DNA of 64,000 bases. Origin: an uncultured Bdellovibrio sp. Its GTDB lineage: Bacteria; Bdellovibrionota; Bdellovibrionia; Bdellovibrionales; Bdellovibrionaceae. How positions within the stretch are numbered: position 1 is the stretch's first letter; every line of letters starts with the position of its first letter. This document shows positions 5,757-46,057 of this stretch, piece by piece. The stretch covers positions 256,001 to 320,000 of the forward strand of contig CAWVRN010000001.1 in assembly GCA_963932905.1 (NCBI GenBank). Direction: 5' to 3'. Both the position numbers and the translations under genes were made by a program. The notes beneath the pieces are model-generated. The model was given only the letters and a program-made list of their open reading frames with translations. It was not told the DNA's origin and did no database searches.

Positions 5757-8311
5757 GTAAATCCCCGATTATCAATGATGTGCAAAAGCTTGCCGCTAGC
5801 AGCACTGCGAGACATTTGTTCCGAAGGTACAAGTTCGATTTTAACTTCAAGAACTTTTTCGTAGTTAACAAGTTCATCCAAATCATAATAGGTATCTAAA
5901 AACGCCTTGGTTACATCTGTCATGGAACCAAGTCCACGAACACTGAGTGACCGTAGAAATTCTGTTTCATTGGAATCAGATAGAATTTTAACGGTCATTA
6001 ATTCTTTATTGCCGTGCTTAGCCAGCACTATTTGAAATTCACTTGGAATACCGAGTTTTTCGGATAGCAGAGTTCCGATATGGTTGTAGTTTAAGAAACT
6101 ACCCGCCGCGCGAAAAATATCTCCGTAACGACCATGTAGTTCAAAGCGTGGTGATTTGCGCCCACAAGGACAATCCGCTTTTACCCATTTCCCTAAATCG
6201 CCAACATCGTATCGCAATAAACTTTGATCTTCACGGGAATGAGTAGAGAAAATCAGTCGTCCAAGCTCGTCACCATCAACGGAATGTAAAGAATCGAGTT
6301 TCAAAATTTCTAGAAGATGGATGTTATGATGTAGATGATAGGTTTTGTTATCTGAATACGGGCATTGATATCCTAACGGTCCCATATCCACACTGCCGTA
6401 ACTTGCGGACTTAATCACTTTTACACCGAAATCATTTTTTAACTTTTCTATCTGGGCCATTGAAAATGCCTCGCCGCCGTAGAAAATCTTTTCGATCATA
6501 CGATCTTGGGTAATCCACTGACGATTGTGTTCTAGTAGCTGCATCAAATACGATGGCATACCCATTAAAACATTTACTTTAAATTTTCGTATAATCTGTC
6601 CAACAAAATCATAGTCCATATAAGCTGACATAGGAAACTGAACAGCCTTAAGTTCTTCCATAATAGTGAAGAAACTTAAAAATCCACCGTACAGTCCGCC
6701 ACCAAAGAACAAATTCATGGTTCTATCTTTACGTGGATCCAAGCCAGCGGCCATTAATCCGTTGGCAGCCGCTTGCATTTGCGTGTGATAGTCTACGTAA
6801 GTAAATTGTGAGATTTTAGATACACCAGAGCTGCCGCCGCTTTTAAAATAGAGCTGCGAACTTGGTTGATCAGGAATATTTTGGAAATCCACCTTGTCCA
6901 TCAACTTATCTGGAAACTGGTCAAAATGAATTTTATTTTCATGCAAATCATTTAACGTCGAAAAAGATTTTAAATTTTCAATTTTTGATTCCAAACTAAC
7001 ACGGCGGACGTATCTGTTTAAGGCAAAATAACCGTCATGTGGTTCCCCCATATAACTATCCTGCATTCCTCCGTTAGATCGAATGCGCGTAACGCCGCAA
7101 GAATAAAACAATCGACTAAGTTCAAACAAATCAGACATCGCGCAAGCCAGACCAACTGTTTGCAAGTACTGCTTCATGGGTCTAAATGTCTTCATGATAT
7201 TTGCCCGTTGAATTGGCTTAACCCAAATCGTTTTATATAACGGAGACGCACGCAACGAAGATCTTGAATCAATCCAAATACGCCATTGACCATGAGTATC
7301 TTCAATCGCATCAGTGTAATTCGGTTGAAGTGACTTTTCTGTTTTAACGATAAGTCCCATCTTGGTGATTTCGGCATCTTCCATTTCAGAGGTGTCGTTA
7401 GCCGCGTAGTTACTGACAACCGCATTCATAGACTGACCTAATAAAGTCGAAAACGATTTTAAATCGGCAAAGCTGGCATCCTCTAAATAGACGCACTGAG
7501 GACTTGAACAAGCCTGTTGATTGAAAACGAAAATGTCATGCACAACTTGTTTTACGGTTTCTAGATTTTGCCATTCTGTTTTCGTTAAATACGAAAAACT
7601 AATTTTATGGCCCCAGTCAATAAATCGAGCCGAAGATGGAACACTTTTTCTAATTTCATTGATAGCTTCCTCGCCGCCCCAAGCGACGACTCCATCCGCG
7701 TGCGAATAGAGACGTTCAAGCAGTGCTTTTTCTTTTGAACTAATATTAACGACGCACACACGATTTTTCCAACAAGCCGTTTGCGAGAACTTAGAAAACT
7801 CGGTGAAAAAGTCTTGAGTAAAAGAGCTGGACTGGTGGCTGAGTTTTAAAATATTCACATTACCTGTCATTAAGCCTTCAAATGCGCTCAGTACAGGAAG
7901 AGCGAAATCATTGCCAGATAAAACTTGTACGATCAATCCAAGAGGTTCCCATTTTTCAAAAATATTGCCATCGGCGTTGATACGTTTACTTGTAAACGGG
8001 GTTAGGCTGCCTAGTTCATTGCTGATTTTGAACTTGATTTGCTTTTTAGAAATAAAGTCCGCAATAGAATTAATAATTTCTTTAGCGATATCTGAACTAA
8101 TTCCGTCCTGTACTGTTAGAGTAGCCACTAAACGTGATTGAATTTCAGACTCAGATTTCAACTGTTTTGAAAATGCATCACAAGATTCTACAAATAAATC
8201 GAGGTCAAAGTTTTCTATCAAAGCAGATTCGATGCAACTTTCAAGGGTTTCTAACTTACTAATAAGTTCTTCGTGACTAACGGTTTGTCCTTGCCAGAAG
8301 TGCGTTCTCAT
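5753..8311 (-). CDS. Fusion of a LuxC-like acyl reductase (N-terminal) and a PaaK-like ligase (C-terminal)
   Basis: N-half: NILK, AWGGEEA, QQACSSPQ (catalytic Cys), PHDG. C-half: KSGGSSG, YGGE, YGSVD, LRYDVGD, CPCGR, GRYGD. Confidence 0.88.
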   Translation of the reverse strand: MRTHFWQGQTVSHEELISKLETLESCIESALIENFDLDLFVESCDAFSKQLKSESEIQSRLVATLTVQDGISSDIAKEIINSIADFISKKQIKFKISNELGSLTPFTSKRINADGNIFEKWEPLGLIVQVLSGNDFALPVLSAFEGLMTGNVNILKLSHQSSSFTQDFFTEFSKFSQTACWKNRVCVVNISSKEKALLERLYSHADGVVAWGGEEAINEIRKSVPSSARFIDWGHKISFSYLTKTEWQNLETVKQVVHDIFVFNQQACSSPQCVYLEDASFADLKSFSTLLGQSMNAVVSNYAANDTSEMEDAEITKMGLIVKTEKSLQPNYTDAIEDTHGQWRIWIDSRSSLRASPLYKTIWVKPIQRANIMKTFRPMKQYLQTVGLACAMSDLFELSRLFYSCGVTRIRSNGGMQDSYMGEPHDGYFALNRYVRRVSLESKIENLKSFSTLNDLHENKIHFDQFPDKLMDKVDFQNIPDQPSSQLYFKSGGSSGVSKISQFTYVDYHTQMQAAANGLMAAGLDPRKDRTMNLFFGGGLYGGFLSFFTIMEELKAVQFPMSAYMDYDFVGQIIRKFKVNVLMGMPSYLMQLLEHNRQWITQDRMIEKIFYGGEAFSMAQIEKLKNDFGVKVIKSASYGSVDMGPLGYQCPYSDNKTYHLHHNIHLLEILKLDSLHSVDGDELGRLIFSTHSREDQSLLRYDVGDLGKWVKADCPCGRKSPRFELHGRYGDIFRAAGSFLNYNHIGTLLSEKLGIPSEFQIVLAKHGNKELMTVKILSDSNETEFLRSLSVRGLGSMTDVTKAFLDTYYDLDELVNYEKVLEVKIELVPSEQMSRSAASGKLLHIIDNRGFT

Positions 8312-9471
8312 ACGAAATCCTTTAGCAATTCAGCCGCAGCTATTGCGCAGCTCTTATTTTTAGAAATTCCTGCGCGCCCTAGAATCTCAAACCAATCCGT
8401 TTTTAATCCGCAGGTGCAGGTTTCACCTCTGTGCAAAATAGCGAGATCACCCATCGTAACAGCATTTGCTGGAGCCGATGTGATGTAAGGGGAAATAAAT
8501 TGTAAAAACCCAGGCTTATCATAACCAACTAAGTTTAAATTTTTTAAGTCACGGATGAGCACTTTAGAATACACCGGAACATGAAACTTATGCTGGCTAC
8601 ACTCGATATAAGGAATGCAGTGCTCAACCGATCCAAATCCGTCGCGTAGACGATGATTAGGAATTCCTAACATTTCTTCGGCAAGTGCGTACAATTCTGA
8701 TTTCTTAATTTCTTGGTTAGCGTAACCTTTCCAGCCGCCGCCTAGGAAAACCAATGATTCTGGAGACAGCTTTAATGGTCTATATTTTAACTCTTTCATT
8801 CGCTGAAGAGTGAAATAGAAAAACGAAGGAAAGCCGAAAATACGAACGGGTAATTCTTCAACTTCATACTCTTGAAGTGTTTTGATGGCGCCAAATATAT
8901 CAAAATCGTGACCGCCTTTTCCAGTAAGCTTCAAAGTGTAATCTGCACGGTTAACGGGTGCGTATTTAGTCAAATAGTTATCAGTAAATGCTGTTCCTAA
9001 TTTAGAATCGATCTCAGTTTGATAGGTATAAAGTAAATAGTTGGTTTTCTTACTAGGCGTAATCCATCCGTAATAGTCATAGATAAAATCAACCATTTGC
9101 TGAGCACAGCCTAAACTCCATTCGTCAAAAAACATTTGTGATTTTTGTCCCGATGTCCCGGAGGACGTTAAGTTAATGTGAACATTATCATCAGAAACAG
9201 ACTTAATTGCGTGGTATTTAAAAAACTCGGCCGGGATACTTGGAATAGTGACTAAATCGCCGTCCCATTTGTTAATGTCAAAACCAGAATCTTTTAGAAA
9301 TTGTCGGTAGAAAGTAGATTTCTCTTGATGCCAACGAATGACTTCTTTCATGGCCTGAACAAATAGAGAATCGTTTTCGGCCGATATCGCGTACGGAGAT
9401 GTGATTTTACAAAGCCTCTCGACAGATCCTAAAAGCGCGCGACTAGGTGGAAAAAGTTCTTTATTTGTCAT
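8308..9471 (-). CDS. LuxE-like acyl-protein synthetase / ligase
   Basis: TSSGTSGQKS, GGGWKG, DGFGSVEH, MGDLA, GRAG and a C-terminal Cys (KSCAIAA). Confidence 0.88.
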   Translation of the reverse strand: MTNKELFPPSRALLGSVERLCKITSPYAISAENDSLFVQAMKEVIRWHQEKSTFYRQFLKDSGFDINKWDGDLVTIPSIPAEFFKYHAIKSVSDDNVHINLTSSGTSGQKSQMFFDEWSLGCAQQMVDFIYDYYGWITPSKKTNYLLYTYQTEIDSKLGTAFTDNYLTKYAPVNRADYTLKLTGKGGHDFDIFGAIKTLQEYEVEELPVRIFGFPSFFYFTLQRMKELKYRPLKLSPESLVFLGGGWKGYANQEIKKSELYALAEEMLGIPNHRLRDGFGSVEHCIPYIECSQHKFHVPVYSKVLIRDLKNLNLVGYDKPGFLQFISPYITSAPANAVTMGDLAILHRGETCTCGLKTDWFEILGRAGISKNKSCAIAAAELLKDFV

Positions 9472-23024: not shown

Positions 23025-24320
23025 ATGATTGATATTAAATTGTTAGAAAAAAAGCCTGAAAATAATGAACCGTCATACTTGGATGCTTACCGCGCAAATC
23101 TTGCGAATCGTGGCGCCGATAGTGCTGTGTTAGATAAAATTTTAGATTTAAATAAAAAACGTAAAGAACTTATCTTTTCGGCCGAGTCTGAAAAATCAAA
23201 GCAAAACAAAGCCAGTCAAGAATTGGGTAAATTAAAACGCGAAGGTAAAGATACGTCCGCGTTGCAGGCCGAACTTGGAAAAATTTCTGCCGAAGTAAAA
23301 GAGATGGAAAAAAAAGCAGGCGAAGTCGACGCTGAAGTTTACAATCTTCTTTTGACGATTCCGAATATGCATCACAGCTCTGTTCCGGTTGGAAAATCGG
23401 CTGAAGAAAATAAAATCGTAAAAACTATTGGCAATAAAACTTCATTTTCTTTTAAAGCCAAGGAGCATTGGGAAATCGGTGAAAAGCTTGGCATTATTGA
23501 TTTTGAAAGAGCCGGTAAAGTCACAGGTGCTAGGTTCGCCTTTTTGAAAGGTCACGGCGCACGTTTGGAACGCGCACTGATTCAGTTCATGATGGATTTG
23601 CATAGTGAAGCTCATGGCTATACGGAAATGATTCCACCTTTTATCGTAAATACTAACAGTTTAATCGGTACTGGTAACTTACCTAAATTTAAAGATGATT
23701 TGTTTCATCTTAGTGGTCAGGACTATTTCTTGATCCCAACAGCGGAAGTGCCTGTTACAAATTATTTCAATAATGAAACACTAAATGAATCTGATTTGCC
23801 AAAAATGTTTTGTGCTTATTCGCCGTGCTTTCGTTCAGAGGCTGGCAGTCATGGCCGCGATACCAAAGGATTAATTCGTCAGCATCAATTTAATAAAGTA
23901 GAACTCATGATCTTTGCACCACCTACGCGTTCTCATGAATTGCATGAAAAGCTAACGAGCGATGCTGAAAAAATTCTAACTGAACTTGAGCTTCCTTTCC
24001 GTCGCATGCTTTTGTGTACGGGTGATATGGGATTTGGATCAGCGAAAACTTTCGATTTGGAAGTATGGCTACCAGGACAGAACGAATATCGCGAGATCAG
24101 TTCATGTAGTAATTTTGAGGATTTCCAGGCGCGCCGAGCGAATATTCGCTATAAAGCGGCTAATGGAAAACCACAGTTTGTTCACACACTTAACGGCTCT
24201 GGTTTAGCTGTTGGGCGCACCCTAATTGCTGTTTTAGAAAACTATCAAAATGAAGACGGATCAGTCCGGGTTCCTAAAGCATTACAAAAATACATGAGCG
24301 GTGTAACCCTTCTTAAATAA
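23025..24320 (+). CDS. serS: Serine--tRNA ligase
   Basis: [51 protein letters not shown]. Confidence 0.99.
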
Positions 24321-24432
24321 GGGTTACCAGTCCATAAAATGAAAATTCCTTAGGCAATACCGCCTACTAACGCGCAGAATAAATTTAAAAAAGGCGTTGA
24401 TCCGTCGTGCCGTTTCCAATAGAACTGACCCC

Positions 24433-24522
24433 GGAGCGATGGTAGAGCGGTTGAATACACCAGTCTTGAAAACTGGCAGCCCTTCGCGGGGCTCGAGAGT
24501 TCGAATCTCTCTCGCTCCGCCA
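24433..24522 (+). tRNA. tRNA-Ser (anticodon TGA)
   Basis: GGAGCGA/TCGCTCC acceptor stem, CCAGT-ctTGAaa-ACTGG anticodon arm, long variable arm, GTTCGAATC, encoded CCA. Confidence 0.97.
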
Positions 24523-24677
24523 ATTACTCTCTCGAAAAAATCAAGTCGCTGAAATTAAAATCAAAAATTATTAAATGCTTCAAGTGGTTGAAAATACTTG
24601 TTTGAAGACGTCCCCGGTTTGACTCGGGGTTCAGAATATTTCCGGGTATTTCTGCTCATTTCAAAATCTTGCTACAG
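24515..24677 (+). repeat. About 163-bp imperfect direct repeat, copy 1 (att core plus arm)
   Basis: Matches 27024-27185, e.g. TTACTCTCTCGAAAAA..TCAAGTC.CTGAAATTAAAATCAAAAATTATTAAATGCTTCAAGT..TTGAAAATACT and CATTTCAAAATCTTGCTACAG. Confidence 0.92.
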
Positions 24678-24947
24678 ATTACTACAACTTTTGCTACACG
24701 GATTTTTCTATGGCGTAAATTTAGCAATACCCGGCCGTCTTGAACTATCCTTGTTCGATTTTCAAAAGCGTCCCCGTTAATGGACATCTAAAAGTTTAAG
24801 AATTTTTGGAAAATTGATTCTGGGACGAAAAGATTTAGTGTTCACAAAGGTTTGTAAAACTATGATCGCTTTTGGGTCCCAGAAGAAGTGGTTTTGAGTT
24901 TTTGAAATTCAAACGAGTAATAGATTAAGCTGGACTAGCTTATCGTG

Positions 24948-25799
24948 CTACCACTTACCATTATCGTTCTTTGAAGCTTGTTTTGACGGAATTTCTTCGA
25001 TTGTATCCCAGTGCTCTTCAATTCTGTCATTTTCAATTCTAAAGAGGTCATAGTAAGCGGCTGGCTTATTATCAAACAATCCTTCACTCATAACCAAAAC
25101 AAAATTTCCCTGACCCAAAACCTTTTTAATAGAATTGTACTTAACAACGAAACCTTCTTTTTGCCACTTCCCTAAAGCTTCGACCAAAGATTTTAAACTG
25201 TCAGCAATAACCGGGTTATGTTGAAGGTAATTATCACCGAAATCGTAAGATTTTAGTTTTTTAAGGTCTCCTTGAACCAAAATATCAGTTACAAAATTTT
25301 TAGCAAGTTTCTTATTTTTTTCAGTTTTGTGCAGATCTTTGACTTCAGTTGGTCCATCTATCATGGTACGGTTGCTCGGATTCGGTTTCATTGGATTAAC
25401 TTGCAAATTATCCCAATGTTCTTCAATTTTTCCATTTTTAAAACGAAACACATCGAAGCCAATTTTGGGTCCAAAGAAGTTATATTCCGTATGTGTCACA
25501 ACATAATCATCATCACGAAAAGCACGAACAGTATTCACTTTTCCCGAACCGGGCGGTAGCTGCTTAACGACTGAGAGCAAGCCTTCAAGGCCTGTCGGAA
25601 TATTCAAATTATGCTGTTTGTATGCACCTACATATTTGTGGGGCTCGGTGGCTCCAGTCTCAATTGATTTCAAGAACTGAATCGCTTTTTCAGTATTCGA
25701 CGTAGCTTCTATAGTTGTACCTTTGGCATTTGCGTTCCAACTCATAGATGTTGCAAGTAATGCAGCTATGATAATTTTTCGAACATTTGTGTTTTCCAT
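24948..25799 (-). CDS. Exported tandem SnoaL/NTF2-like domain protein
   Basis: Signal peptide; two repeats of YxQHN...D(V/L)FR...IEEHWD. ATG at 25799 follows AGGAGA. Confidence 0.85.
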   Translation of the reverse strand: MENTNVRKIIIAALLATSMSWNANAKGTTIEATSNTEKAIQFLKSIETGATEPHKYVGAYKQHNLNIPTGLEGLLSVVKQLPPGSGKVNTVRAFRDDDYVVTHTEYNFFGPKIGFDVFRFKNGKIEEHWDNLQVNPMKPNPSNRTMIDGPTEVKDLHKTEKNKKLAKNFVTDILVQGDLKKLKSYDFGDNYLQHNPVIADSLKSLVEALGKWQKEGFVVKYNSIKKVLGQGNFVLVMSEGLFDNKPAAYYDLFRIENDRIEEHWDTIEEIPSKQASKNDNGKW

Positions 25800-25852
25800 A
25801 TTTTCTCCTGTTTTAAATAAGATCAATTGATCTTATATTGTTTATTCATTAT

Positions 25853-25874
25853 ATATCTATCACTAGATAGATAT
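25853..25874. promoter_or_regulatory. Palindromic operator, probably bound by the adjacent TetR
   Basis: ATATCTATC-acta-GATAGATAT; a near-identical site lies at 26429-26450. Confidence 0.7.
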
Positions 25875-25887
25875 GGTTTCAAAAAAA

Positions 25888-26421
25888 CTACAGGGTTTTA
25901 ACCCAAGCTTTTGCTGCCTCTAAGCTGTCACTGTCATCATTCGCTCGATCGACAATTAAGGCTCCCTCAATAAGGCTTACGATCACCTTACTTAAATGTA
26001 TTCTCGATAGGTCTGATTCGCTTTTGTAAAATTTGATTTTTTGACTGATCCAACCTTCTAAGGTCGAAAAAAAGCTTCTAACCCGGTCAACGACCTGAGG
26101 TTCTAGTCCACTCGCTTCCGTCGCTAATGATCCGCAGAGACAAATCAGTTTTTCTTTCTGAGATTCCTCGCAAAAAGAAATCATGATTTCAAGAGTCTTA
26201 GCCAACGTTTTAACACTTTGTGTTCTTCTCTCTAGCTCGTTCATAAAATTTTGACCATAATCTTTTACAATCTCAGCTAAAAGATCTGATTTGGTCGGAA
26301 AATAATAGTGAATAGAAGACGATTTAACTCCAACTATATTGCCTAAATCTCTGAAATTCAAACTGTGAGAACCACCCATTCGAACTATTCTGATCGCTTC
26401 TGTCTTGATTGAATCTTTCAT
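25888..26421 (-). CDS. TetR/AcrR-family regulator
   Basis: HTH LNFRDLGNIVGVKSSSIHYYFPTKSDL and ICLCG. Likely ATG at 26421. Confidence 0.92.
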   Translation of the reverse strand: MKDSIKTEAIRIVRMGGSHSLNFRDLGNIVGVKSSSIHYYFPTKSDLLAEIVKDYGQNFMNELERRTQSVKTLAKTLEIMISFCEESQKEKLICLCGSLATEASGLEPQVVDRVRSFFSTLEGWISQKIKFYKSESDLSRIHLSKVIVSLIEGALIVDRANDDSDSLEAAKAWVKTL

Positions 26422-26428
26422 AATCTTA

Positions 26429-26450
26429 TTATCTATCAACTGGTAGATAA
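26429..26450. promoter_or_regulatory. Palindromic operator upstream of tetR (autoregulation)
   Basis: TTATCTATC-aact-GGTAGATAA. Confidence 0.7.
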
Positions 26451-27023
26451 ATGCAAGCTTTTTTTAAAGTGTCTCAGATGGGTCAAATCCTCCGAATGAA
26501 TTGGAGTTAATACCTAATGTTATTTTTCATCCAGCCCTTCAGAAAACCCTAAACCTTTTAATACAGCGTTGAAGGCGCCGCCCCTTGCAATGAGCGCAGC
26601 CCTACAGTGACCTTTAGAAAATTGGTGGTCCCCTTAAATGAGGCGAAAAACAGAGTTGTGACCTAGCGGTCAGGAAGGGTGCCGCCCGAGCCTCAGAAAT
26701 CGCGGGGAAACACAGGGGACATTCTAGGGATTTACCGTGGGACTTGCTGGGGACGCCGTAGCTTTATTGACCAGATCGCAGTTTCAAATTTTTCGATGTA
26801 TTCAACAACTTGCGTTGTCCAAACTCCAGGGACGACAACCCGACTGAGTATGTCGTTATCAGTGCGCTTACAACATTCAGCAATAGCTATGAAACAGGCG
26901 CGCAGACTTTGCCATCACACCAATAAACAGTTTCTTGCTACAACTTACTACAGATTAGTTATGCGGGTAAGAAATGCTGAAGACTTTCAACGAGTTAAAA
27001 ACTTGGGAAATAGCATTCTCCCT

Positions 27024-27185
27024 CTCCGCCATTTACTCTCTCGAAAAATCAAGTCCCTGAAATTAAAATCAAAAATTATTAAATGCTTCAAGTAATTGAA
27101 AATACTGATTCGAAGTAGTCCCTAGTTTGTCTAAAGGTTCAGAACGGATCCCAATATTTCTGTGCATTTCAAAATCTTGCTACAG
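27024..27185 (+). repeat. About 162-bp imperfect direct repeat, copy 2, starting with a tRNA-Ser 3'-end fragment
   Basis: CTCCGCCA followed by sequence matching 24523-24677. Confidence 0.92.
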
Positions 27186-27376
27186 GTTCTTTCGGAGGGT
27201 GCTAATTCTGAGAAAAAACTAGATTCAGAATTTTCTGAACGGTTTTTAAATTGGGCCCCTTTAAAGAAACTCGAAAATTTTGCGATTTTATTAAAAAATT
27301 AATCCGGGAAGGAAAATTTCAGTGTTCACAAAAGTGCTATCTGTTGTGAACGCGATGAGATCCATTAAGAAGGGGT

Positions 27377-28144
27377 TTAATCCGCAAAAAAAGAAGCATG
27401 GTATTCGTCTGATTCAAATATGAGGTCATCATTCTCTTTGGAGATCCCTATTATTTTTAGATGAGATCTCATAAAATCCAAATCTGCATTTTTATTTGGG
27501 TCAAGGATTCTTTCGGCATTCACCGAGCCACCAATTTTGACTGAGTGATTATTGTTGATGAGGTATCGACAACTAATATCTCCTTCAACTCGTAATGCAT
27601 GATCATTTCTATGAAGGTGTAAAATATTATCCACCTTTAAATTCCCGCCAACCACGACTTCGCCCGAAGACGACATATTGGTAGCAGCCATATTTCCAAG
27701 AACAATAATATTGGAACTTTCATCCCAGTCAGATAGATTACCTTGTATCGATAAGTTCCCAGTCAGAAACAACGAACCGATCTCGACAAAAATGTCGCCT
27801 TGAACGCTAACTGACCCATTTCTTAAAGCAATTTCTCCATTTTGGAATCTCGTCTTCCCTACTTCGAGCAATGCACTCGGTTCTTTTTGGTTTTCTCGCA
27901 TAGCTGTGAGTAGAGAGTAGATAACGACGGAGTCACAAAAAGGCTGTTGCTTATCTTTTGGAAAGTAAGGTAATCTTGTAATTTCACTGAATAGATCTTC
28001 GTAAGTCTGCGGATAGTTGAAGTCTAGTAACCAAGCAAGTTCAGTTTGATTCAAGCTACGATGGTTCTTGAACATCTTTACGCTCGAAAGATTTGTGATC
28101 ACATTTTTAAGAGATTCTTTAAAAGATCCTACATTCAGATTCAT
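27377..28144 (-). CDS. Hypothetical protein with C-terminal bactofilin-like (GxLxVxG) beta-solenoid repeats
   Basis: GSVSVQGDI, GNLSIQGNL, VLGNMAA, VVGGNLKVDN, VEGDISC, IGGSVNA. Confidence 0.65.
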   Translation of the reverse strand: MNLNVGSFKESLKNVITNLSSVKMFKNHRSLNQTELAWLLDFNYPQTYEDLFSEITRLPYFPKDKQQPFCDSVVIYSLLTAMRENQKEPSALLEVGKTRFQNGEIALRNGSVSVQGDIFVEIGSLFLTGNLSIQGNLSDWDESSNIIVLGNMAATNMSSSGEVVVGGNLKVDNILHLHRNDHALRVEGDISCRYLINNNHSVKIGGSVNAERILDPNKNADLDFMRSHLKIIGISKENDDLIFESDEYHASFFAD

Positions 28145-28674
28145 AGACTAATCTTTTCATAAATGTCTCCGTTTGTATAGAAAGGAAATGCTAGTTACCC
28201 ACCTAGCCCCGGCCTTTTCGTTCAATAAAAAAAGCACCACCATTCAATGTGAACAAAGTCAAACAGAGACCTCTGGGAAATGGATGGTCCCCGTTAAATG
28301 ATTTAAAAATATGTTTTTTCTCCGGTGGTCATAAAGAGTATCGCACACCAGGACGCTACCAGTTTCGAATCAAACGACAAGACGAGGGACTCATCGCAAC
28401 CACACCATGTTTCTTGCTACAGATTACTACAAGTTAGTTGAGAGCTGAAGAAATTCTAAAGACTTTTATTAGAATTTTTGAAAGCCGTTTGATTCGTGAA
28501 GAAGGGTTTAGTCAGCGTGCAGTTGACTTCAGCCAGATCAGAACTTCATCTGCATTTTTATCAGGTGGAAAAACTGGGTAAAAAACTTTTTGGATTTTTC
28601 CATTCTGAATGAAAAACGGCTCGTTGTTTTGACAGTTTATAGTCGAAGCTAATGAGCCGTTAAAGATTTAAAAT

Positions 28675-29115
28675 CTAGTTACATTGATTTGTCTTGCCAA
28701 GAGGCAACGGGTAACCTTGTACAACCCAAATTACAGAATATTGGCCGGGAGCAAATTCGAAAAACATCAACTGAGTCGGTTTTTCTGTGCCTGTAGAAAC
28801 CGCTAGGATACTACCACCTGTAAAGCTAGTGATATCAGCTATCGTGTTGATGATTTTTGTATCGTCTGCATTGAAGTCAGCCGCCGTGAAATCAGCCGCG
28901 CCTACGATATTGTAAGTCGTGCTACCTTTGAATGGTTGACCGTCTTGATCTTTGCCTTCGATATCAATGGCGATAGTTTTATCAACTACTTTGTAAGCTA
29001 CTTTTAAGCTTGATTTTGGTTCACATGAACTCATTGTCGCAGGAACCATTGCGAATGATGCAGAAGCAAAGCAAAGTGCTAAGCCAACGAAAAATAATTT
29101 TGCTGTAGATACCAT
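28675..29115 (-). CDS. Secreted hypothetical protein
   Basis: Signal peptide ending ASFA; ATG at 29115 after a purine-rich RBS. Confidence 0.7.
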   Translation of the reverse strand: MVSTAKLFFVGLALCFASASFAMVPATMSSCEPKSSLKVAYKVVDKTIAIDIEGKDQDGQPFKGSTTYNIVGAADFTAADFNADDTKIINTIADITSFTGGSILAVSTGTEKPTQLMFFEFAPGQYSVIWVVQGYPLPLGKTNQCN

Positions 29116-29249
29116 ATTGGACCCCTTTTCTTTTGGTTTAAGATGCAAATATATTTCAATGGACGAAAAGATGAATAGCAAGAAAAATACTTTAAATTTT
29201 TTTTCTGGGGAGGATGGCCACGCATGGTAAACTTTGAACTTTTGTCAAA

Positions 29250-31013
29250 ATGGCGACACACTCTTTGGATATGAATAAAAGTATATCGATGAAGCGGTTA
29301 GCAAGTGTGGCCAAACCTGAATACTCAACCCTGGGTTGGGGTTTGTTTTTCTTAGTCATTTCCAGTGTTTCTTCCCTTGTGTATCCCCAAGTAATACGAT
29401 GGATGGTTGACAATGTTTTGCAAACCAAACGAATCGATTTATTGTGGTGGTCCGTTGGTGCTCTATTCATAGTATTTATTCTTCAAGGTATCACTTCCAG
29501 TGTGCGTTATTACCTGTTCACTTTAAGCGGTGAACGAATTGTCCTTAAACTGCGCCAAAGATTGTTTGGAAATTTAATGAACCAGGAAGTCTCCTTCTTT
29601 GATTTTCATCGCACAGGTGAATTGATGAGTCGCCTAGCTTCCGATTGCACGACATTGCAAAATACAGTCAGTGTAAATATATCGCAAGGGCTAAGAAATT
29701 TGGGGCAAGTAATCGGTGGCCTTGGGTTTATGTTTTATACTTCATGGCAGTTAACAGCGATCATGTTTTTATTAATACCGCCGATTGCGTTGTTCGCCGC
29801 AGTTTACGGAAAAAAAATTAGAGCGCACTCAAGAAACCTTCAGGAAGCCGTCGCAAATTCCAGCATTGTGGCAGAAGAAACTTTGTCTGGTGTTAAAACT
29901 GTAAAATCATTTGTTCGAGAATCTTTTGAAGTTCAACGTTACACTTTGGCTTTGGATCATGCTCTATTCTTCGTGCGCGCACGCATTAATGCCATCACGA
30001 TATTTATGATGGTGGCGATGGTTGTTGGGTTTACTGCGGTCTGTGTCGTCCTGGCCTATGGCGGCTATCAAGTGATTGACGGTCAGATGACCGTGGGTGA
30101 TTTAACTCAATTTCTTTTGTACCTAATGTTAGTCGCGATTGGTGTAGGAAGTCTGGGAAGTTTATGGGGTGACTTCGCCGCGGGCATTGGGGCTTCAGAA
30201 CGAATTTTTGAAATTCTAGAAAAACAATCACAAGAATTGACTCAAGGTACACGCCCCAATCAGGTGCATGGAAAAATTGAATTCAAAAATGTGTCGTTTA
30301 GTTATCCAACTCGAAAAGACATAAAAGTTGTTAAGGATCTATCATTCCAAATAGAGCCCGGACAAAAGGTTGCTTTTGTGGGATCCTCTGGTGCTGGAAA
30401 ATCCACAATAGCGAGTTTAATTCCCGGTTTTTATCCCATCGATTCAGGACAAATCAAAATTGATGGGCAGGACATTCAAACTTTGGATGTTTCTTGGTTG
30501 CGTTCCCAGATTGGTATTGTATCGCAAGAGCCAATATTGATTTCATCTTCTATTGAAGAAAACATCAAATATGGTCGTGAATCTGCTAACTCCGAAGAAA
30601 TTGCCACAGCAGCAAAATCGGCGAACGCCTGGGAATTTATTCAACGATTTCCCGAAAAAATGGAAACTAAAGTGGGTGAAAAAGGTTTGCAGTTGTCTGG
30701 TGGACAAAAGCAACGTGTTGCCATTGCCCGGGCCGTTCTTAAAGATCCAAAAATTCTAATTTTGGATGAAGCCACATCTAGTTTAGATACGGAAAGCGAA
30801 GCATTGGTACAAGAAGCACTTAATAAACTGATGGAAGGTCGCACAAGCCTGGTCATTGCCCATCGGCTTTCGACCATAGTGGATGCTGATAAAATTTTCG
30901 TTTTAAACAATGGTGAAGTTGTTCAAAGCGGAAAACATGACGAACTTGCCAAAGATAAATCAGGTATTTACTATAAACTGTTACAAAAACAATTCTCTGG
31001 AGAAACCGAATGA
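29250..31013 (+). CDS. ABC exporter, fused permease/ATPase (MsbA/ABCB-like)
   Basis: Six-helix membrane domain; GSSGAGKS, LSGGQKQRVAIAR, LDEATSSLD, IAHRLST. Confidence 0.93.
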   Translation: MATHSLDMNKSISMKRLASVAKPEYSTLGWGLFFLVISSVSSLVYPQVIRWMVDNVLQTKRIDLLWWSVGALFIVFILQGITSSVRYYLFTLSGERIVLKLRQRLFGNLMNQEVSFFDFHRTGELMSRLASDCTTLQNTVSVNISQGLRNLGQVIGGLGFMFYTSWQLTAIMFLLIPPIALFAAVYGKKIRAHSRNLQEAVANSSIVAEETLSGVKTVKSFVRESFEVQRYTLALDHALFFVRARINAITIFMMVAMVVGFTAVCVVLAYGGYQVIDGQMTVGDLTQFLLYLMLVAIGVGSLGSLWGDFAAGIGASERIFEILEKQSQELTQGTRPNQVHGKIEFKNVSFSYPTRKDIKVVKDLSFQIEPGQKVAFVGSSGAGKSTIASLIPGFYPIDSGQIKIDGQDIQTLDVSWLRSQIGIVSQEPILISSSIEENIKYGRESANSEEIATAAKSANAWEFIQRFPEKMETKVGEKGLQLSGGQKQRVAIARAVLKDPKILILDEATSSLDTESEALVQEALNKLMEGRTSLVIAHRLSTIVDADKIFVLNNGEVVQSGKHDELAKDKSGIYYKLLQKQFSGETE

Positions 31014-40797: not shown

Positions 40798-41598
40798 TTA
40801 AAAGTCAATTTTTTTGGCCTTTTTCTCTGTGGATTTAGTATTTTCTAATCCCTTTAAAATATGCCCAAAGGATTCCAGGTGATGTAGTTTCGGTTTCCAA
40901 AATAAATTGACACGATTTTGATTAGCTTCGGTGATTTCGCGTTCTCTGAGTGGCTCCGGTATCTCTTGAAGCAATTGGGAAAGACGCTTCTGATTATTGA
41001 GTTCGTAAGGGTACTTGGTTTCGATGGTCTTAAATATCTTTTTAGGATCAATTTTGTCAGCCTTCATCTCTAAAAAGAGGGCGATTGATTTTTCTGAGTC
41101 AGTGATACGTTCTTTGAGATGACGAATTTCGTGATTTACTAACTCGAGCTGCCTATGAAGATATTTTTTTTCATCCATTAAAAATTCAACATCTAAAGAA
41201 TTGGATTTTGTGAAATGTTTTGAGTCCTGATTAAGTAAATCAATTATCCGTGTTTTATAATTTACGATGAACTGATAAACAAAAAAGAATTCTGAATATG
41301 AATTATTCAGCGGCAGAGCCACCAAATCGTTCAAGGTCTGGATGAGTCCGGCTCGGGTCAGCTTATAGCGGGGCGGATTTTTACGCCCCATCTTTTTTGC
41401 TAATCCGAGCCGGACCATATTCTGTAGGCTTCGCATTACTTGTGTATTGTGAAGGGGGAAGGGCTCGCTATCAATTTTCACAAACACCCAATTCGAAAAT
41501 AGATCCATATAGAACCGTACTTCTCGCTGCCGGAAACCATCTAGCATTGAGCTAGAGTGAGCGGCAATTACAGAAGCATAAAAGTACTTTGAGTTCAT
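40798..41598 (-). CDS. Hypothetical protein, possible winged-helix regulator
   Basis: HNTQVMRSLQNMVRLG...PRYKLTRAG resembles a PadR-type wing; coiled-coil C-terminus; divergent from a membrane gene. Confidence 0.55.
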   Translation of the reverse strand: MNSKYFYASVIAAHSSSMLDGFRQREVRFYMDLFSNWVFVKIDSEPFPLHNTQVMRSLQNMVRLGLAKKMGRKNPPRYKLTRAGLIQTLNDLVALPLNNSYSEFFFVYQFIVNYKTRIIDLLNQDSKHFTKSNSLDVEFLMDEKKYLHRQLELVNHEIRHLKERITDSEKSIALFLEMKADKIDPKKIFKTIETKYPYELNNQKRLSQLLQEIPEPLREREITEANQNRVNLFWKPKLHHLESFGHILKGLENTKSTEKKAKKIDF

Positions 41599-41605
41599 AG
41601 TTTAA

Positions 41606-41715
41606 TTACAATGTAACTAAAATTATAAATCAATAAAAATATATAAATATATATAAAAATAGTTATACACATTTCCACATGTTACATTGTAACAAATATA
41701 TCCACATTTCCACAT
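41606..41715. promoter_or_regulatory. Palindromic operators in the divergent promoter region
   Basis: TTACAATGTAA (41606-41616) and TGTTACATTGTAACA (41680-41694); the second is flanked by CACATTTCCACAT direct repeats (41668-41680, 41703-41715). Confidence 0.6.
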
Positions 41716-41748
41716 AGGGATAAAGTATTCTTTCTGCATGGAGGATCT

Positions 41749-43050
41749 GTGGATTCTGAAAAAATAAATGATCGCGGTGGTATTAAATCGATACTCCGAT
41801 ATGTCGGCTTATTTTCAGTGGTACTATCTGGAATTACGTTTATGGTGCAAGGTTGGAGCGAACTTACGGATTTAAACAAATACCTCTCTTTCTTTGGATT
41901 TGTCGCGATAATGGCGGGTTTGTCATTTCTGTTCGTCCGAAGGTTTGGCGATAAACTAACGGCAAAAATATTCGCAGTGCTTTCGGCATTAGGGATAACA
42001 ACATTGTTTTCACAAATTGCGTCGATTGTTTATTCGTCTGTTAAACCTGGGGTCGCGGCAGTTCCAGAGGCATTTCGGTTCGCTGTTCCCGCTTCTGAGT
42101 TTATGGTGATCGGTGTTGTAACAGGACTCGCTTTGATACCGATGGCACTCGTCGGATTTCATTCCCTGATTAAGTCCCGGTTTGTTGAATCAGCGTTATT
42201 GTATTTAGCTTTGAATGCGCTTTTGATCTTGCCATTTAGAGATTCAGTTTGGAATTCAGGTTTGCTTTTATCGCAGTTCCTGATTTTATTTTGGGGATAC
42301 AAAAGGTTCAAAATTCAGTTATCAATTGAGGATCGCTGGAATCGATTCGGAATGTTTGGATTGTTAAGTGCTCCGATCATCACTCTCATGATACGATCGC
42401 TCTATTATCCCGTAAACGAATACTATTTCGCTACTTTATTTGGTGTTTTAGGTGTGGCATTGGTGTTTGTGCCAGTCGAACCAACGACCCGAGATGAAAA
42501 AGAAATGGCATCTTTGTTTACTGGAATCGGCTATTTTTCTTTATTAGCGGCCTGGATATTCTTCACTGAACACACCTACTTTCTGTATGTTCGACGTCCG
42601 GAAATAGAGGCGTTCTTTAGTTTGTTACATCCGTATGTAGTGTTTGGTGGAATGTCTCTTATTTCGTATTTTGTTTATAAGGCCAAAGGAAAATCGTACT
42701 TATTTTATAAGGACGCCATTGTATTCTGGATTAATATTTCTATATGCAATTCTGTATGGAATACCAACAAATTTGAAACACACGCCGTGGGAATTTTAAT
42801 AGCCATTGGGCTAGTAGTCTATTCGTACAGTAGCCACTTTAAATGGCTACTTCTATTGAGCCTATTAACCGTAATGTTGTGCTTGACATACTATTTTGAT
42901 TTTATAACCGAACTATATCGGCGTTCACCATGGTTATTTTACGCCATTTCTGGAATCGGTCTAATATTAATTTCGGCCTTCTATGATAGGATCGTTAAGT
43001 TTATGGAACCTCTTCGACGTCGACGTGATTCGTTTCTAAATCGTGAATAA
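41749..43050 (+). CDS. Polytopic hypothetical membrane protein
   Basis: 433 aa with more than ten hydrophobic segments; GGAGG RBS and GTG start. Confidence 0.75.
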   Translation: MDSEKINDRGGIKSILRYVGLFSVVLSGITFMVQGWSELTDLNKYLSFFGFVAIMAGLSFLFVRRFGDKLTAKIFAVLSALGITTLFSQIASIVYSSVKPGVAAVPEAFRFAVPASEFMVIGVVTGLALIPMALVGFHSLIKSRFVESALLYLALNALLILPFRDSVWNSGLLLSQFLILFWGYKRFKIQLSIEDRWNRFGMFGLLSAPIITLMIRSLYYPVNEYYFATLFGVLGVALVFVPVEPTTRDEKEMASLFTGIGYFSLLAAWIFFTEHTYFLYVRRPEIEAFFSLLHPYVVFGGMSLISYFVYKAKGKSYLFYKDAIVFWINISICNSVWNTNKFETHAVGILIAIGLVVYSYSSHFKWLLLLSLLTVMLCLTYYFDFITELYRRSPWLFYAISGIGLILISAFYDRIVKFMEPLRRRRDSFLNRE

Positions 43051-43828
43051 CTTTTTCGTCGGGAGCGTTAAAAGTCTTTTTAGCCGCCTCGGCGGCGCCC
43101 GTTCCCAATTCAGGACGCTTAAGCTTAAACGTCTTGCTAATTCGAGCTTCTCGAGGAGATTTCAAATCGACTCCCGATGATACGCGTAAGAAATCCTCGG
43201 TAAGCTCGATGCGTTCAACACCAAATCCAGTTACGTCGCCAAGCATGTTAGCAACGAAACGCTGAAGCATGCTTATAGTTTCAAAATAAATATCTACGAA
43301 AGGGATATAGCGAAATATTTTAATAAAAAACATTTTGATTTCCCCAATACCAAGCAATGTCGCTGGAACCGGTTTTACTTTTAACTGAGGATCGTATATC
43401 CAGCTACTAATCAAAGTTCCAAATTTAGGTGGATCTAAGTGATAACCACGCAAGAAATAAATAGTTAGATGTGATTCTTCTTTCTTGTCACTGTAGTGAG
43501 CGCAGATGTATAGAACGATACGATCTTTCGTAACGTCAAAACCTAAAATAGGAAGTGGAATGACAGAGAAAAAGTCATCATTTTGAGGTCTGAAAAAACC
43601 TTCGAATGTTCCGTAAAACTTTTTTTGCCCGTCTTTTATTTCATATTCGAATTCAGATTGCAGAGGAATACTTTTCGGCAACGAGGTTTTCATTGCCGCA
43701 ATTTTTTGCGTTACTTTAGTCCCGAAATCATTCAGGTCACTAGGTTGCAAACTGCACCCCGTTTCAAATGAAAAACTATACTGACACAAAAATAAAATTG
43801 CGAAAATAGTTAGGTAGAAGAATTTCAT
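43001..43828 (-). CDS. Secreted hypothetical protein
   Basis: N-terminal signal peptide; coupled to the upstream gene by an ATGA overlap. Confidence 0.7.
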   Translation of the reverse strand: MKFFYLTIFAILFLCQYSFSFETGCSLQPSDLNDFGTKVTQKIAAMKTSLPKSIPLQSEFEYEIKDGQKKFYGTFEGFFRPQNDDFFSVIPLPILGFDVTKDRIVLYICAHYSDKKEESHLTIYFLRGYHLDPPKFGTLISSWIYDPQLKVKPVPATLLGIGEIKMFFIKIFRYIPFVDIYFETISMLQRFVANMLGDVTGFGVERIELTEDFLRVSSGVDLKSPREARISKTFKLKRPELGTGAAEAAKKTFNAPDEKVIHDLETNHVDVEEVP

Positions 43829-44625
43829 GGGATAGGTTGTCCTTCCGAGTCTTTACCTTTATACTCTAGAGAGCCTTTAAAACAAGATTCGCGTTGAGAA
43901 ATTAGATTGTAATTTGTTAACATGGAAACTTGAATAGATTCCTGCTGACCGTTTTGAACGATCGCCGTGATTTTGTAGGCGCGCTGTTTGTTCAAGTAGA
44001 ACGGAGTCGTTGCGTGAACTGTAATTTTTTCGGCATCAAATCCGTCTATATTATTTAAAATAAAATACTCGGAAATCTTGTGGCCCTTAGGGATCGTGAT
44101 AGAAATATCGCCAATGAAATTTCCTAAATCACGATCGTTCGAGCTGGCTACAGAGCATTTTGATTTTCCAGCTTCAGAAGTCACTCGATTAGCTTTTCTA
44201 GTTAAGTTACCAAAGAAGTTTTCAAATGATAAAAATATAAACTCACCACCCAATTTGAATAAACCAAGATGGGTATTACGCCATTCCAATAATAAAGGAG
44301 GTAAATACTGACCTTGATCATTTAAAACCCAAAGCCAAATGCGGCTGGCTTGCTTGTGTTCAAATGTATATTTGACTGATTCGTAAACACATGCGCCAAC
44401 GCCAGGAAAATTAACCGGGGCGCCGTTTTCTAGGCGACAGGAGTGGACTTTGATACCTAGCTCTTTCAACATCTTGTCGATGTCCACAATAAATGAACTA
44501 ATAAAACGATAGGTTTTACTTGCCTCATTATAAGAAGTCGGCGGGGCATCGCCTGCCGTCGTCGGTGCCGCCAGTAATAGCGGCGATAAAAAAAGAGTGG
44601 CTAATAGCCAGCTCAAAAACTTCAT
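43825..44625 (-). CDS. Secreted hypothetical protein
   Basis: Signal peptide MKFLSWLLATLFLSPLLLA; four Cys. Confidence 0.7.
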   Translation of the reverse strand: MKFLSWLLATLFLSPLLLAAPTTAGDAPPTSYNEASKTYRFISSFIVDIDKMLKELGIKVHSCRLENGAPVNFPGVGACVYESVKYTFEHKQASRIWLWVLNDQGQYLPPLLLEWRNTHLGLFKLGGEFIFLSFENFFGNLTRKANRVTSEAGKSKCSVASSNDRDLGNFIGDISITIPKGHKISEYFILNNIDGFDAEKITVHATTPFYLNKQRAYKITAIVQNGQQESIQVSMLTNYNLISQRESCFKGSLEYKGKDSEGQPIP

Positions 44626-44634
44626 TTAATGCAC

Positions 44635-45411
44635 CTATTGTTTTTTAGATCTTAATTTAAAGTTACCTACGAACTTATTAACTGCTTTTGAATTGTAAGT
44701 GCCAGAAAATTCGCAAATGGCGGGCTTCAAGACAGTTTTATCTGGAGTATCCATGTCAAAGCCGCTTTTCCAAGCTGTACAGCTGCCTTTGTATGCAAAT
44801 TTCCCATCAGCCAACTTTTGATCGAAATCAACAGTGATATCTTTGATACGCATATCGAACGAACCAAAGTTAATGCTGTTCACTGAAATATCTAACAACT
44901 TTTTATCATCTAAAGTGTTACAAACATCGTTATTAAACGAATAGTTTTGGCAAAAGCGTACTGTTAATTTCATTTTTCCCGCCGCACCAGTTTTGATTTT
45001 AGAAACTACGAACATTTCTTTAGTAGAGAATCTAACATCAGGAATAACCTTTCTGACTTGAGGATTGGTTTTTTCTTCATCTACAAAGCTATATTGAATC
45101 TGATCTTTAAACTTGATTAACGCAGAAATGTCTAAATACTTAAATTCGATGTCTGTTTTACTTTCTTCGCCTTTTTGAGTTGTTTTGAAGTCGACATCGA
45201 TATCAAAATCAAACCTGGCTAGTACGATTTGATTTAAAATCGTAATTAGAGCTGACTTAGAAGCCGCATCTTGAGCATCCTCTTTTGCTTTGTTTGACGT
45301 TTTTGACTTAGCCGACTTTTTCACCACCGGAGTTCCATCGGTAGCCAAAGTTAGAACAGGTGTTGAAGCAATTAAACCGGCGATCAAAAGTTTAGAGAAT
45401 GCATTTTTCAT
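44635..45411 (-). CDS. Secreted hypothetical protein, beta-strand-rich
   Basis: Signal peptide from the ATG at 45411; alternating hydrophobic pattern; two Cys pairs. Confidence 0.7.
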   Translation of the reverse strand: MKNAFSKLLIAGLIASTPVLTLATDGTPVVKKSAKSKTSNKAKEDAQDAASKSALITILNQIVLARFDFDIDVDFKTTQKGEESKTDIEFKYLDISALIKFKDQIQYSFVDEEKTNPQVRKVIPDVRFSTKEMFVVSKIKTGAAGKMKLTVRFCQNYSFNNDVCNTLDDKKLLDISVNSINFGSFDMRIKDITVDFDQKLADGKFAYKGSCTAWKSGFDMDTPDKTVLKPAICEFSGTYNSKAVNKFVGNFKLRSKKQ

Positions 45412-45604
45412 AAAGCCTCGCAAAAATATTTTGAACCGGAGTATATCTTAATTAGTTAAGTTTGTGTGATAATTCTTTTAATAAAACATTTATTTTCCAG
45501 TCATTAAACACGCCGCTGTCAACATTGTTGACACAAAAATTGTCACATTGAAAAGACATATTACAGTTTGCGATCGAAACACATCTGTGTAATGATTTTC
45601 TCAG

Positions 45605-46057
45605 ATGCGTTCACCACTACTTATCGCTTTTTTATTTCTTATGGCTCTGTCTATGGCAGTCGTTCTGGCTGTTCCCAATTTCAAGAAGAAGTTCAAAGAA
45701 TATTTTGTAACAGAACATCGCACGATTTTGGGTAAAGTTGTAGGGAATCTTCACCCCGGTTCTGAAACTTTTGTTATTCTAAAAATAAAACAGAAAGAAA
45801 ATATTTTTGTCGAGGTTTATAAAGAGGACCCTAAAACTGAAACTTTACAATTTATGCAGAAGTTAGATCTGGGGCAGAAAAAAGAAGGTCATTTTACCTT
45901 TAAAAATGAAGCCACTAACCTGGTTTTTACCAATATCGATGACGACGAGAATCTAGAAATATTGGTCCCAGTTTTTGATTCCGAAATGACCGCTCGGTTA
46001 TATACGATAAAATACAATGAATCGATAATGCAGTTCGAAGTCCTTAATTCGAATTAG
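45605..46057 (+). CDS. Hypothetical membrane-anchored protein
   Basis: N-terminal hydrophobic helix; FG-GAP/VCBS-like NIDDDENLEILV. Confidence 0.65.
   Translation: MRSPLLIAFLFLMALSMAVVLAVPNFKKKFKEYFVTEHRTILGKVVGNLHPGSETFVILKIKQKENIFVEVYKEDPKTETLQFMQKLDLGQKKEGHFTFKNEATNLVFTNIDDDENLEILVPVFDSEMTARLYTIKYNESIMQFEVLNSN

Follow-up and report, generated by a model that had tools for sequence, protein, structure and literature searches.

Two tandem units with a shared non-coding scaffold and unrelated cargo beside tRNA-Ser(TGA) in an uncultured Bdellovibrio: a probable array of small elements served by a recombinase in trans

We analysed a 64-kb stretch of DNA from an uncultured Bdellovibrio sp. (contig CAWVRN010000001.1), referred to here as the window; all positions are numbered within it. 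The window carries serS, the gene for seryl-tRNA synthetase, whose product belongs to a 90% identity cluster of 20 members named Bdellovibrio or Pseudobdellovibrionaceae, metagenome-assembled genomes among them. A tRNA-Ser(TGA) gene lies 3' of serS after a gap of 112 nt, and serS and a conserved open reading frame (ORF) of 102 aa make up the upstream side of the locus. Between the tRNA and a right flank that is common to a close relative lie 4.1 kb that hold two complete units, built on the same non-coding scaffold around different genes, and what may be the stump of a third (Table 1). We read these 4.1 kb as a serially inserted array of small integrative elements whose recombinase was supplied in trans, and consider this reading moderately probable.

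Each complete unit has a left arm (blocks L1 and L2), a cargo slot and a right arm (blocks R1 and R2). A sensitive self-BLASTN of positions 24300-29300 against the whole window matched 24508-24894 to 27017-27378 (387 columns, about 66-68% identity, E 2.6e-49), 26913-26987 to 28392-28466 (R2, 73%, E 4.8e-8) and 26591-26685 to 28250-28344 (R1, the weakest block, 66%, E 3.6e-4). Because the single 387-column alignment spans both L1 and L2, these two blocks form one continuous homology. A repeat search agreed, returning a repeat of 145 nt at 83% identity (D1), the tRNA end together with the start of L1 at 91% (D5) and a repeat of 75 nt at 73% (D2). A sequence-only reading of this DNA had proposed that L1, L2, R1 and R2 occur twice in the same order, and every block proved real, in identical order around the two cargoes. 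That reading had also described the cargo between L2 and R1 as unrelated and on the minus strand in both units, SnoaL plus TetR in one and a beta-solenoid protein in the other, and we found the same.

The complete units measure 2.5 kb (unit 1) and 1.45 kb (unit 2), and the non-coding scaffold common to both takes up ~0.8 kb of each. The cargo slot holds one or two genes per unit, on the minus strand throughout. Conservation within the left arm is patchy, with identical runs of 37 nt (24549-24585), 21 nt (24657-24677) and 12 nt (AGTGTTCACAAA). The 37-nt run is A/T-rich, lies 27-63 nt past the CCA end and was equalled by none of 5000 column shuffles. Unit 2 has lost 22 nt of L1 directly after its arm-type site at 27177.

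Table 1. Features of the tRNA-Ser(TGA) locus and of the units that follow it, in window coordinates.
Feature	Position	Strand	Basis or remarks
serS (seryl-tRNA synthetase)	23025..24320	+	Pfam tRNA-synt_2b E 4.9e-40, Seryl_tRNA_N E 5e-24; conserved left neighbour
tRNA-Ser(TGA), putative integration target	24433..24522	+	ARAGORN; Rfam tRNA, 58.3 bits
Left core (putative attL), last 15 nt of tRNA-Ser(TGA)	24508-24522	+	
Unit 1 left arm (L1+L2)	24523..24894	+	37-nt invariant block 24549-24585; GTCCCC 24610, 24770; T(T/A)(G/A)CTACA 24669, 24679, 24691
Unit 1 L2-tail stable hairpin	24818-24884	+	Around AGTGTTCACAAA
Unit 1 cargo: tandem NTF2/SnoaL-like protein, secreted-looking, 283 aa	24948..25799	-	Pfam SnoaL/SnoaL_2; exact sequence and start in protein collection
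Unit 1 cargo: TetR-family regulator, 177 aa	25888..26421	-	Pfam TetR_N, TetR_C_13_2
Unit 1 R1	26591..26687	+	GGTGGTCCCC..TTAAATG; TGACC-N4-GGTCA palindrome
Unit 1-only insert between R1 and R2	26688..26912	+	225-nt alignment gap in unit 2; GC 0.45-0.47
Unit 1 R2, spacer and junction core	26913..27031	+	Phased sites 26935, 26945; 29-nt spacer with T-arm-like hairpin 27005-27022; core 27017-27031
Unit 2 left arm (L1+L2), partly eroded	27032..27378	+	One arm-type site 27177; GTCCCT 27119; GCCCC 27255; hairpin 27322-27354
Unit 2 cargo: beta-solenoid protein, 255 aa, near-ORFan	27377..28144	-	Weak Pfam pAdhesive_15 and FapA matches
Unit 2 right arm	28250..28466	+	R1 28250-28346; R2 28392-28466 with phased sites 28414, 28424
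Putative truncated start of a third unit, core and L1 missing	28467..28511	+	28484-28506 resembles L2 tails of units 1 and 2
BcpB-type peroxiredoxin remnant: stop and last 34 codons	28512..28619	-	tblastn; BLASTP E 1e-10
Right flank: intergenic DNA and 146-aa gene, common to L002	28626..29115	-	Aligned to L002 16199-16274; blastn 71%; tblastn 67% aa
146-aa gene, no family match	28675-29115	-	
ABC transporter gene, right of the 146-aa gene	29250-31013	+	

The NTF2/SnoaL-like protein of unit 1 has 5579 homologues, the named ones mainly from Bacteroidota, and a Bernardetia plasmid carries such a gene at 67% DNA identity in a different gene context. Within the gene, a 40-nt direct repeat (25004-25043 and 25409-25448, 405-nt spacing, 78% identity) was observed; it suggests that the protein arose as an internal tandem duplication of an NTF2-like domain. 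When proteins were clustered at 90% identity, the TetR regulator stood alone and the NTF2 cluster had one other member, a 292-aa entry. Since this entry has the length that the same ORF would have from a longer TTG start, neither cargo protein of unit 1 was seen in another genome. Two 20-nt near-palindromes of the type TATCTATCA..TAGATAGATA (repeat D7), one just upstream of the NTF2 gene (25854-25873) and the other over the start region of the TetR gene (26430-26449), are probably TetR operators, which would make the cargo of unit 1 a self-regulated module. For the solenoid protein of unit 2, only two homologues were present in 5.8 billion clusters, one of 94% identity from a contig of 2,090 nt and one of 61% from a contig of 17 kb. 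Protein-language-model features gave it a score of 0.94 to 'polymer-forming cytoskeletal protein'; a bactofilin-like, polymer-forming nature is a lead only. PADLOC and PHROGs identified no defence or phage families in the cargo of either unit.

For comparison with other genomes, a SerS-queried scan of genome contigs yielded 80 loci comprising 1,253,354 nt (1.25 Mb). Five of these were from close relatives, with SerS amino acid identities of 95% (L002), 80% (L001) and 62-66% (L003-L005). The resident tRNA-Ser(TGA) is identical at 90 of 90 positions in the window, L001 and L002, with the acceptor strands GGAGCGA/TCGCTCC. A diverged 15-nt copy of its 3' end stands at the junction of the two units (27017-27031) and, allowing up to two mismatches, nowhere else in the window; the tRNA 3'-end core itself occurs only at 24510-24522 and 27019-27031 in the 64 kb. 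Two acceptor-stem positions set the junction core apart from the end of the resident tRNA, and at both it matches the tRNA-Ser of another lineage. The core reads CCCTCTCCGCCA, which is the last 12 nt of the tRNA-Ser of L003 (acceptor GGAGAGG/CCTCTCC), a more distant Bdellovibrionales genome than L001 or L002. To judge from these bases, the junction fragment is not a recent copy of the resident gene and looks like the imitation of another tRNA-Ser carried by an element. The resident tRNA and the junction core have only CTCCGCCA in common, which suggests that the crossover would fall within the last bases of the core.

This resemblance to the tRNA of L003 argues against a simple local duplication, in which a native segment beside the tRNA was copied in tandem and its interior later replaced, all without site-specific recombination. 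The copies are indeed adjacent and colinear, and the blocks were found nowhere else searched, as that account would have it. But the cargo is wholly unrelated between units, the supposed native segment has left no trace after the identical tRNA in L001 and L002, and the copies have diverged by 17-35%, as much as species differ from one another at this locus. Together with the foreign acceptor-stem bases, these points make a local duplication extremely improbable.

Short motifs cluster on both sides of the junction core. All five exact window copies of TTGCTACA, counted on both strands, lie inside the units and on the plus strand, and the background is 26 copies in the 1.25 Mb of the 80 loci. 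The degenerate form, T(T/A)(G/A)CTACA, occurs 14 times in the window, and 8 of these copies fall in the units, 10-12 nt apart and on both arms: unit 1 has three where L1 ends, L1 of unit 2 has one, and each R2 has two. Measured from the junction core, two of them lie ~80-90 nt to the left and one to three lie ~146-169 nt to the right. A 23-nt double-site module common to L1 and R2 was recognised by nhmmer (E 0.026 and 0.2). A second motif, GTCCCC and after it a TTAAA-like sequence, has one plus-strand copy in every L1, L2 and R1 block of the two units and is slightly degraded in unit 2. Its reverse complement recurs in the insert that is confined to unit 1, where GGGGAC or GGGAC is found every ~11-12 nt over 26703-26755 (minus-strand GTCCCC at 26720 and 26754). 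TRF found no tandem array in this region, and it is possible that these repeats are iteron-like or are sites for an accessory protein. The repeat search found no inverted repeat pairing the start of L1 with the end of R2. With its core and the phased, repeated motifs on both arms, the R2-core-L1 junction has an anatomy that fits the attP site of a tyrosine recombinase.

Cargo can also be exchanged through homology arms, as happens in the 'minimal mobile elements' of Neisseria. Under such an explanation the blocks would be homology arms and expression signals, and the cargo would have been swapped by homologous recombination. The position of R1 upstream and of the L2 hairpin downstream of the cargo in both complete units is compatible with it, as is the variability of the site among relatives. 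It leaves unexplained, however, both the copy of the tRNA 3' end at the junction and the identical phased motif on either side of the junction core, and the relatives are without the arms that such an exchange would need. We therefore regard it as highly improbable.

The inner end of L2 forms an unusually stable hairpin in both units (unit 1, z = -3.15, with 0 of 200 shuffles as good; unit 2, z = -3.13, 1 of 200). The two hairpins are unlike in sequence, and on the coding strand each comes directly 3' of the stop codon of the cargo, a position that suggests a terminator, which the L2-tail hairpin probably is. If the stump described below is included, the stop codon of the cargo abuts the L2 tail in three units, within 54, 0 and 5 nt.

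Other functions for the scaffold were considered and rejected. A hairpin in L1 was neither conserved nor unusually stable and gave no case for a conserved RNA structure there, and an Rfam search at E <= 1 gave the tRNA alone as a valid match, all other matches being far below gathering scores, so that no known RNA family (riboswitch, small RNA, group II intron) accounts for the scaffold. The idea that genes had been miscalled in the scaffold fared no better: seven scaffold ORFs, namely a 138-aa ORF across the junction and six smaller ones, are absent from a collection of 15 billion proteins, and the 138-aa ORF had 0 matches among 1.84 billion representatives. We did observe a 32-codon, ATG-started ORF on the minus strand that is open in both copies of L1 (24561-24659 and 27069-27167; 21/32 residues identical). 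Most of the differences alter the residue and no family match was obtained, so that it is probably non-coding, with a micro-protein as a possibility.

We then searched for the machinery that might move such units. Pfam scans detected no integrase, resolvase or transposase in any of 72 window ORFs of at least 90 aa, nor, at E <= 1, in the non-coding scaffold cut into 52 stop-to-stop fragments; the fragments gave only weak and irrelevant matches, to DUF5329 (0.035) and ALKL1_2 (0.13). Transfer families were absent from the cargo, the 52 fragments and the 72 ORFs. The comparison was extended to plasmids (PLSDB) and phages (INPHARED) by blastn in distant mode with 24508-28620 as the query, and to the 80 loci with nhmmer profiles built from L, R1 and R2. 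No gene remnants from integrative and conjugative elements (ICEs) or integrative and mobilizable elements (IMEs) were found in the 52 fragments, and no related autonomous element in the 80 loci, the plasmids or the phages.

Decay of once-autonomous islands is the main alternative to an array of small elements. The units would then be the att-flanked husks of two or three larger tRNA-Ser islands of one family, each of which had an integrase of its own until deletions took it away along with most other genes; such husks would be cis-mobilizable elements (CIMEs) in the strict sense. CIMEs are defined as such leftovers and pile up in tandem (PMC5704250), and degenerate elements with partial tRNAs are described in tRNA islands of Prochlorococcus (10.1101/2020.12.28.424599). 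Deletion has clearly acted at the present locus, as the 22-nt loss in L1 of unit 2, the missing right core and the truncated peroxiredoxin attest. Yet neither an integrase fragment nor other gene debris was found in any of the 52 scaffold fragments (0/52), and the cargo slot, its orientation and the placing of the stop codon against the L2 tail are identical in three units out of three. Such a repeated slot would not be expected from independent random deletions, and we consider the decay of larger islands unlikely.

The third unit counted here is itself uncertain, and we give about even chances to the possibility that 28467-28619 is the oldest, truncated member of the array. On its left side, the stretch 28484-28506 aligned with the L2 tail of unit 2 at a local score of 21, reached by 2 of 500 shuffles, and with that of unit 1 at a score reached by 14 of 500; by nhmmer it is a weak match (E 9 for the window as a whole). 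We dismissed as chance a match of 14 nt that links 28481-28494 to positions 16122-16135 of L002, its score of 23 being within the range of shuffles (mean 17.5, maximum 31). On its right side, a match to a peroxiredoxin gene at 28530-28606 was first seen in the PLSDB search. In tblastn with seven homologues, full-length (190 aa) or partial, 28616-28515 aligned to residues 157-190 with 82-97% identity, and the homology ended abruptly at 28616. Full-length homologues number 29 and include one named Bdellovibrio sp. ArHS BcpB. The peroxiredoxin stump has the orientation of the other cargo and comes directly after R2 of unit 2, and the sequence common to the window and L002 resumes at ~28626. A peroxiredoxin gene near serS was found in none of the 80 loci (0/80). 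On one side of the proposed unit, the core, L1 and most of L2 would have disappeared; on the other, the cargo would be without its 5' part, and R1, R2 and the terminal tRNA repeat would be gone. These losses would explain why the array has no right-hand tRNA core. In another assembly we observed a 109-aa version of the BcpB-type peroxiredoxin (protein P0163), truncated at the N-terminus and extended at the C-terminus, so that this gene may be truncated repeatedly in the group.

The stretch that follows tRNA-Ser differs from one relative to the next. In L002, the nearest readable relative, the array is absent: homology to the window ends at the end of the tRNA and resumes around the 146-aa gene, and the slot between holds 4.7 kb with three two-component genes that have no counterpart in the window. 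These genes, at 11532-16123 of L002, encode a hybrid histidine kinase-receiver of 676 aa, a response regulator of 129 aa and a PAS/GAF histidine kinase of 724 aa. No tRNA-fragment repeat is present in the L002 slot, and nhmmer detected no L or R blocks in L002. On these alignments, the hot spot has a second filling in L002, a gene set unrelated to the array. Past its identical tRNA, L001 carries genes that are unrelated and non-syntenic, and no convincing homology to L1 was seen in the native post-tRNA sequence of L001-L005. In Bdellovibrio sp. 28-41-41, OYZ20074 is SerS and OYZ20076 an ABC transporter; by its accession numbering, this genome would have space for a single gene between the two. 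Since the fillings of the relatives differ, the DNA past tRNA-Ser is a hot spot of variation; among the genomes examined, the array appears specific to the lineage of the window.

In the reading that we favour, a tyrosine integrase acting in trans would have brought about serial site-specific integration at the 3' end of tRNA-Ser. Because no unit encodes a recombinase, the integrase would have been supplied by a helper element or by a chromosomal gene outside the window. The circular form of a unit would comprise the cargo and R1-R2-core-L1-L2, and its joined R2-core-L1, as seen at 26913-27200, would be an attP-like site. In this site the phased T(T/A)(G/A)CTACA motifs on both arms would be putative arm-type sites of the integrase, and the GTCCCC and TTAAA-like sequences putative sites for accessory proteins. 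The L2 hairpin would stop transcription of the cargo ahead of the core and the tRNA. Each new unit would enter at the intact tRNA and displace older ones outward, so that the newest unit would lie beside the tRNA. This order fits the gradient of decay along the array, in which unit 1 is complete, unit 2 is without two arm sites and has weakened GTCCCC sites, and the putative unit 3 is nearly gone.

Several observations weigh against this reading. There is no third core to the right of unit 2 in the window, and because unit 2 and the array as a whole are without a right-hand core, at most unit 1 would be excisable as the array stands, should any mobility persist. The similarity between the two copies of R1 is weak (E 4e-4), and the G+C of the units (0.385 and 0.375) is close to that of the window (0.400). 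Self-BLASTN gave no additional copy of a scaffold block in the remaining ~60 kb of the window. The scaffold profiles had their best match among the 80 loci at E 0.23, in an unrelated Clostridium locus; no scaffold block was found in the PLSDB plasmids, where the only matches were to the cargo NTF2 gene and the peroxiredoxin stump; the scaffold query returned zero matches among the INPHARED phages; and no partner integrase was found in the sequence searched. Lastly, the peroxiredoxin stump agrees at 30/31 residues (97%) with a full-length protein of another, related assembly. This match and the homologue named as Bdellovibrio make it possible that the gene was a native neighbour and no cargo of unit 3, and the stump may be native to the lineage.

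Of the claims made from the sequence-only reading, the attP-type nature of the R2-core-L1 junction gained the diverged tRNA 3' end and the phased direct repeats on both arms in its favour, and the statement that the units contain no intact recombinase can be extended, as Pfam revealed none that was fragmentary either. Its proposal of a non-autonomous family mobilised in trans stands in part: the tandem, integrase-less, att-flanked architecture at a tRNA end is well supported, and no copy beyond this locus was found in the window, the 80 loci, the plasmids or the phages. As for the local duplication that the reading had named as a refutation, the blocks were found nowhere else searched, L001 and L002 are without the native segment, and the junction core is of a foreign type. 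For want of a further scaffold copy in the 80 loci, plasmids and phages, an active family mobilised in trans is something that we infer, plausibly, from a single locus.

A stronger version of the proposal is a dedicated cassette system, in which one cargo slot, a terminator and an attP of ~0.8 kb would circulate without a recombinase among Bdellovibrio-like bacteria and be captured at tRNA-Ser by the tyrosine integrase of a helper or of the chromosome. We consider this version quite unlikely. If it were true, the system would be a functional analogue of integrons built on tRNA-type attP/attB recombination, and the match of the junction core to the tRNA-Ser of another lineage would record a transfer between lineages.

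Elsewhere in the window, at 5753-9471, a fusion of a LuxC-like acyl-CoA reductase with an AMP-binding region (852 aa) adjoins a LuxE-like acyl-protein synthetase (387 aa), with a major facilitator superfamily (MFS) transporter nearby; these genes may represent a fatty-aldehyde-type pathway in a predatory bacterium. Six ORFs in a row at 40798-46057, each 150-433 aa long, were without a match to Pfam at E <= 1e-5.

Among known systems, integrons and clusters of attC sites lacking an integron-integrase (CALINs) also gather small cassettes of one or two genes in one orientation at one site, and their attC sites are imperfect inverted repeats of 50-150 nt. The array resembles them in effect, its units being small, with one or two genes in one orientation at a single site. 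It differs in that its recombination region spans ~0.8 kb and its repeats are direct instead of inverted: an inverted-repeat search of 24000-29000 found no attC-like pair at the unit boundaries, where the repeats are direct. A platform of IntI, attI and Pc is absent beside the array, and Pfam found no integrase in the 64 kb. In staphylococci, pseudo-SCC elements (staphylococcal cassette chromosome) at rlmH encode no recombinase, lie between direct repeats, pile up at the 3' end of one gene and are moved by the recombinase of a neighbour. They involve a serine recombinase and a protein-coding target, are much larger than the units described here and are not known to have a common non-coding scaffold. 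A DDE transposon or a miniature inverted-repeat transposable element (MITE) was rejected, as no inverted repeat joins the unit ends and the repeated end motifs are all on the plus strand.

CIMEs of the ICESt1/ICESt3 family in streptococci lie between att sites at a target gene's 3' end, are without integration or transfer genes, occur in tandem and depend on the integrase of another element (PMC5704250). The present units share the absence of integration and transfer genes, and unit 1 lies between the cores 24508-24522 and 27017-27031; unit 2 has a left core only. CIMEs, however, are understood to be decayed ICEs or IMEs and are usually larger, whereas the units of the array have no decayed gene content and no partner ICE or IME is in view. 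Unlike CIMEs, the units also have a conserved non-coding scaffold of ~0.8 kb, a fixed cargo slot and a Bdellovibrio-like predator as host. When islands target tRNA genes, the tRNA is restored and a displaced fragment remains at the island's far end (Islander; PMC4383910). In the tycheposons of Prochlorococcus, a partial tRNA alone separates neighbours and newer elements push older ones outward, and tRNA-Ser(TGA) serves as an example label in the gene-label key of that paper (10.1101/2020.12.28.424599). The array is like both in having an intact tRNA and a displaced 3' fragment. Tycheposons and Islander islands encode a tyrosine (or serine) recombinase and often replication genes; the units of the array encode neither and are ~10x smaller.

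We found no literature on such mini-elements in Bdellovibrio-like bacteria, in a search that did not extend to subscription journals and so leaves their absence from print unproven. If the units are the remains of decayed islands, the locus would be an ordinary tRNA hot spot, and its main value would be to illustrate cleanly how attP arms outlast their integrase. If they have been propagated as integrase-less cassettes, they would represent a second route, besides integrons, by which single-gene modules are stacked at one site, and would help to follow how genes flow in predatory Bdellovibrio-like bacteria. Of the kinds described so far, CIMEs and tandem tRNA islands come closest. What is unusual in the array is that its units combine four things: they are very small, they have ~0.8 kb of non-coding scaffold in common, their cargo sits in a fixed slot, and they show no remains of decayed genes.

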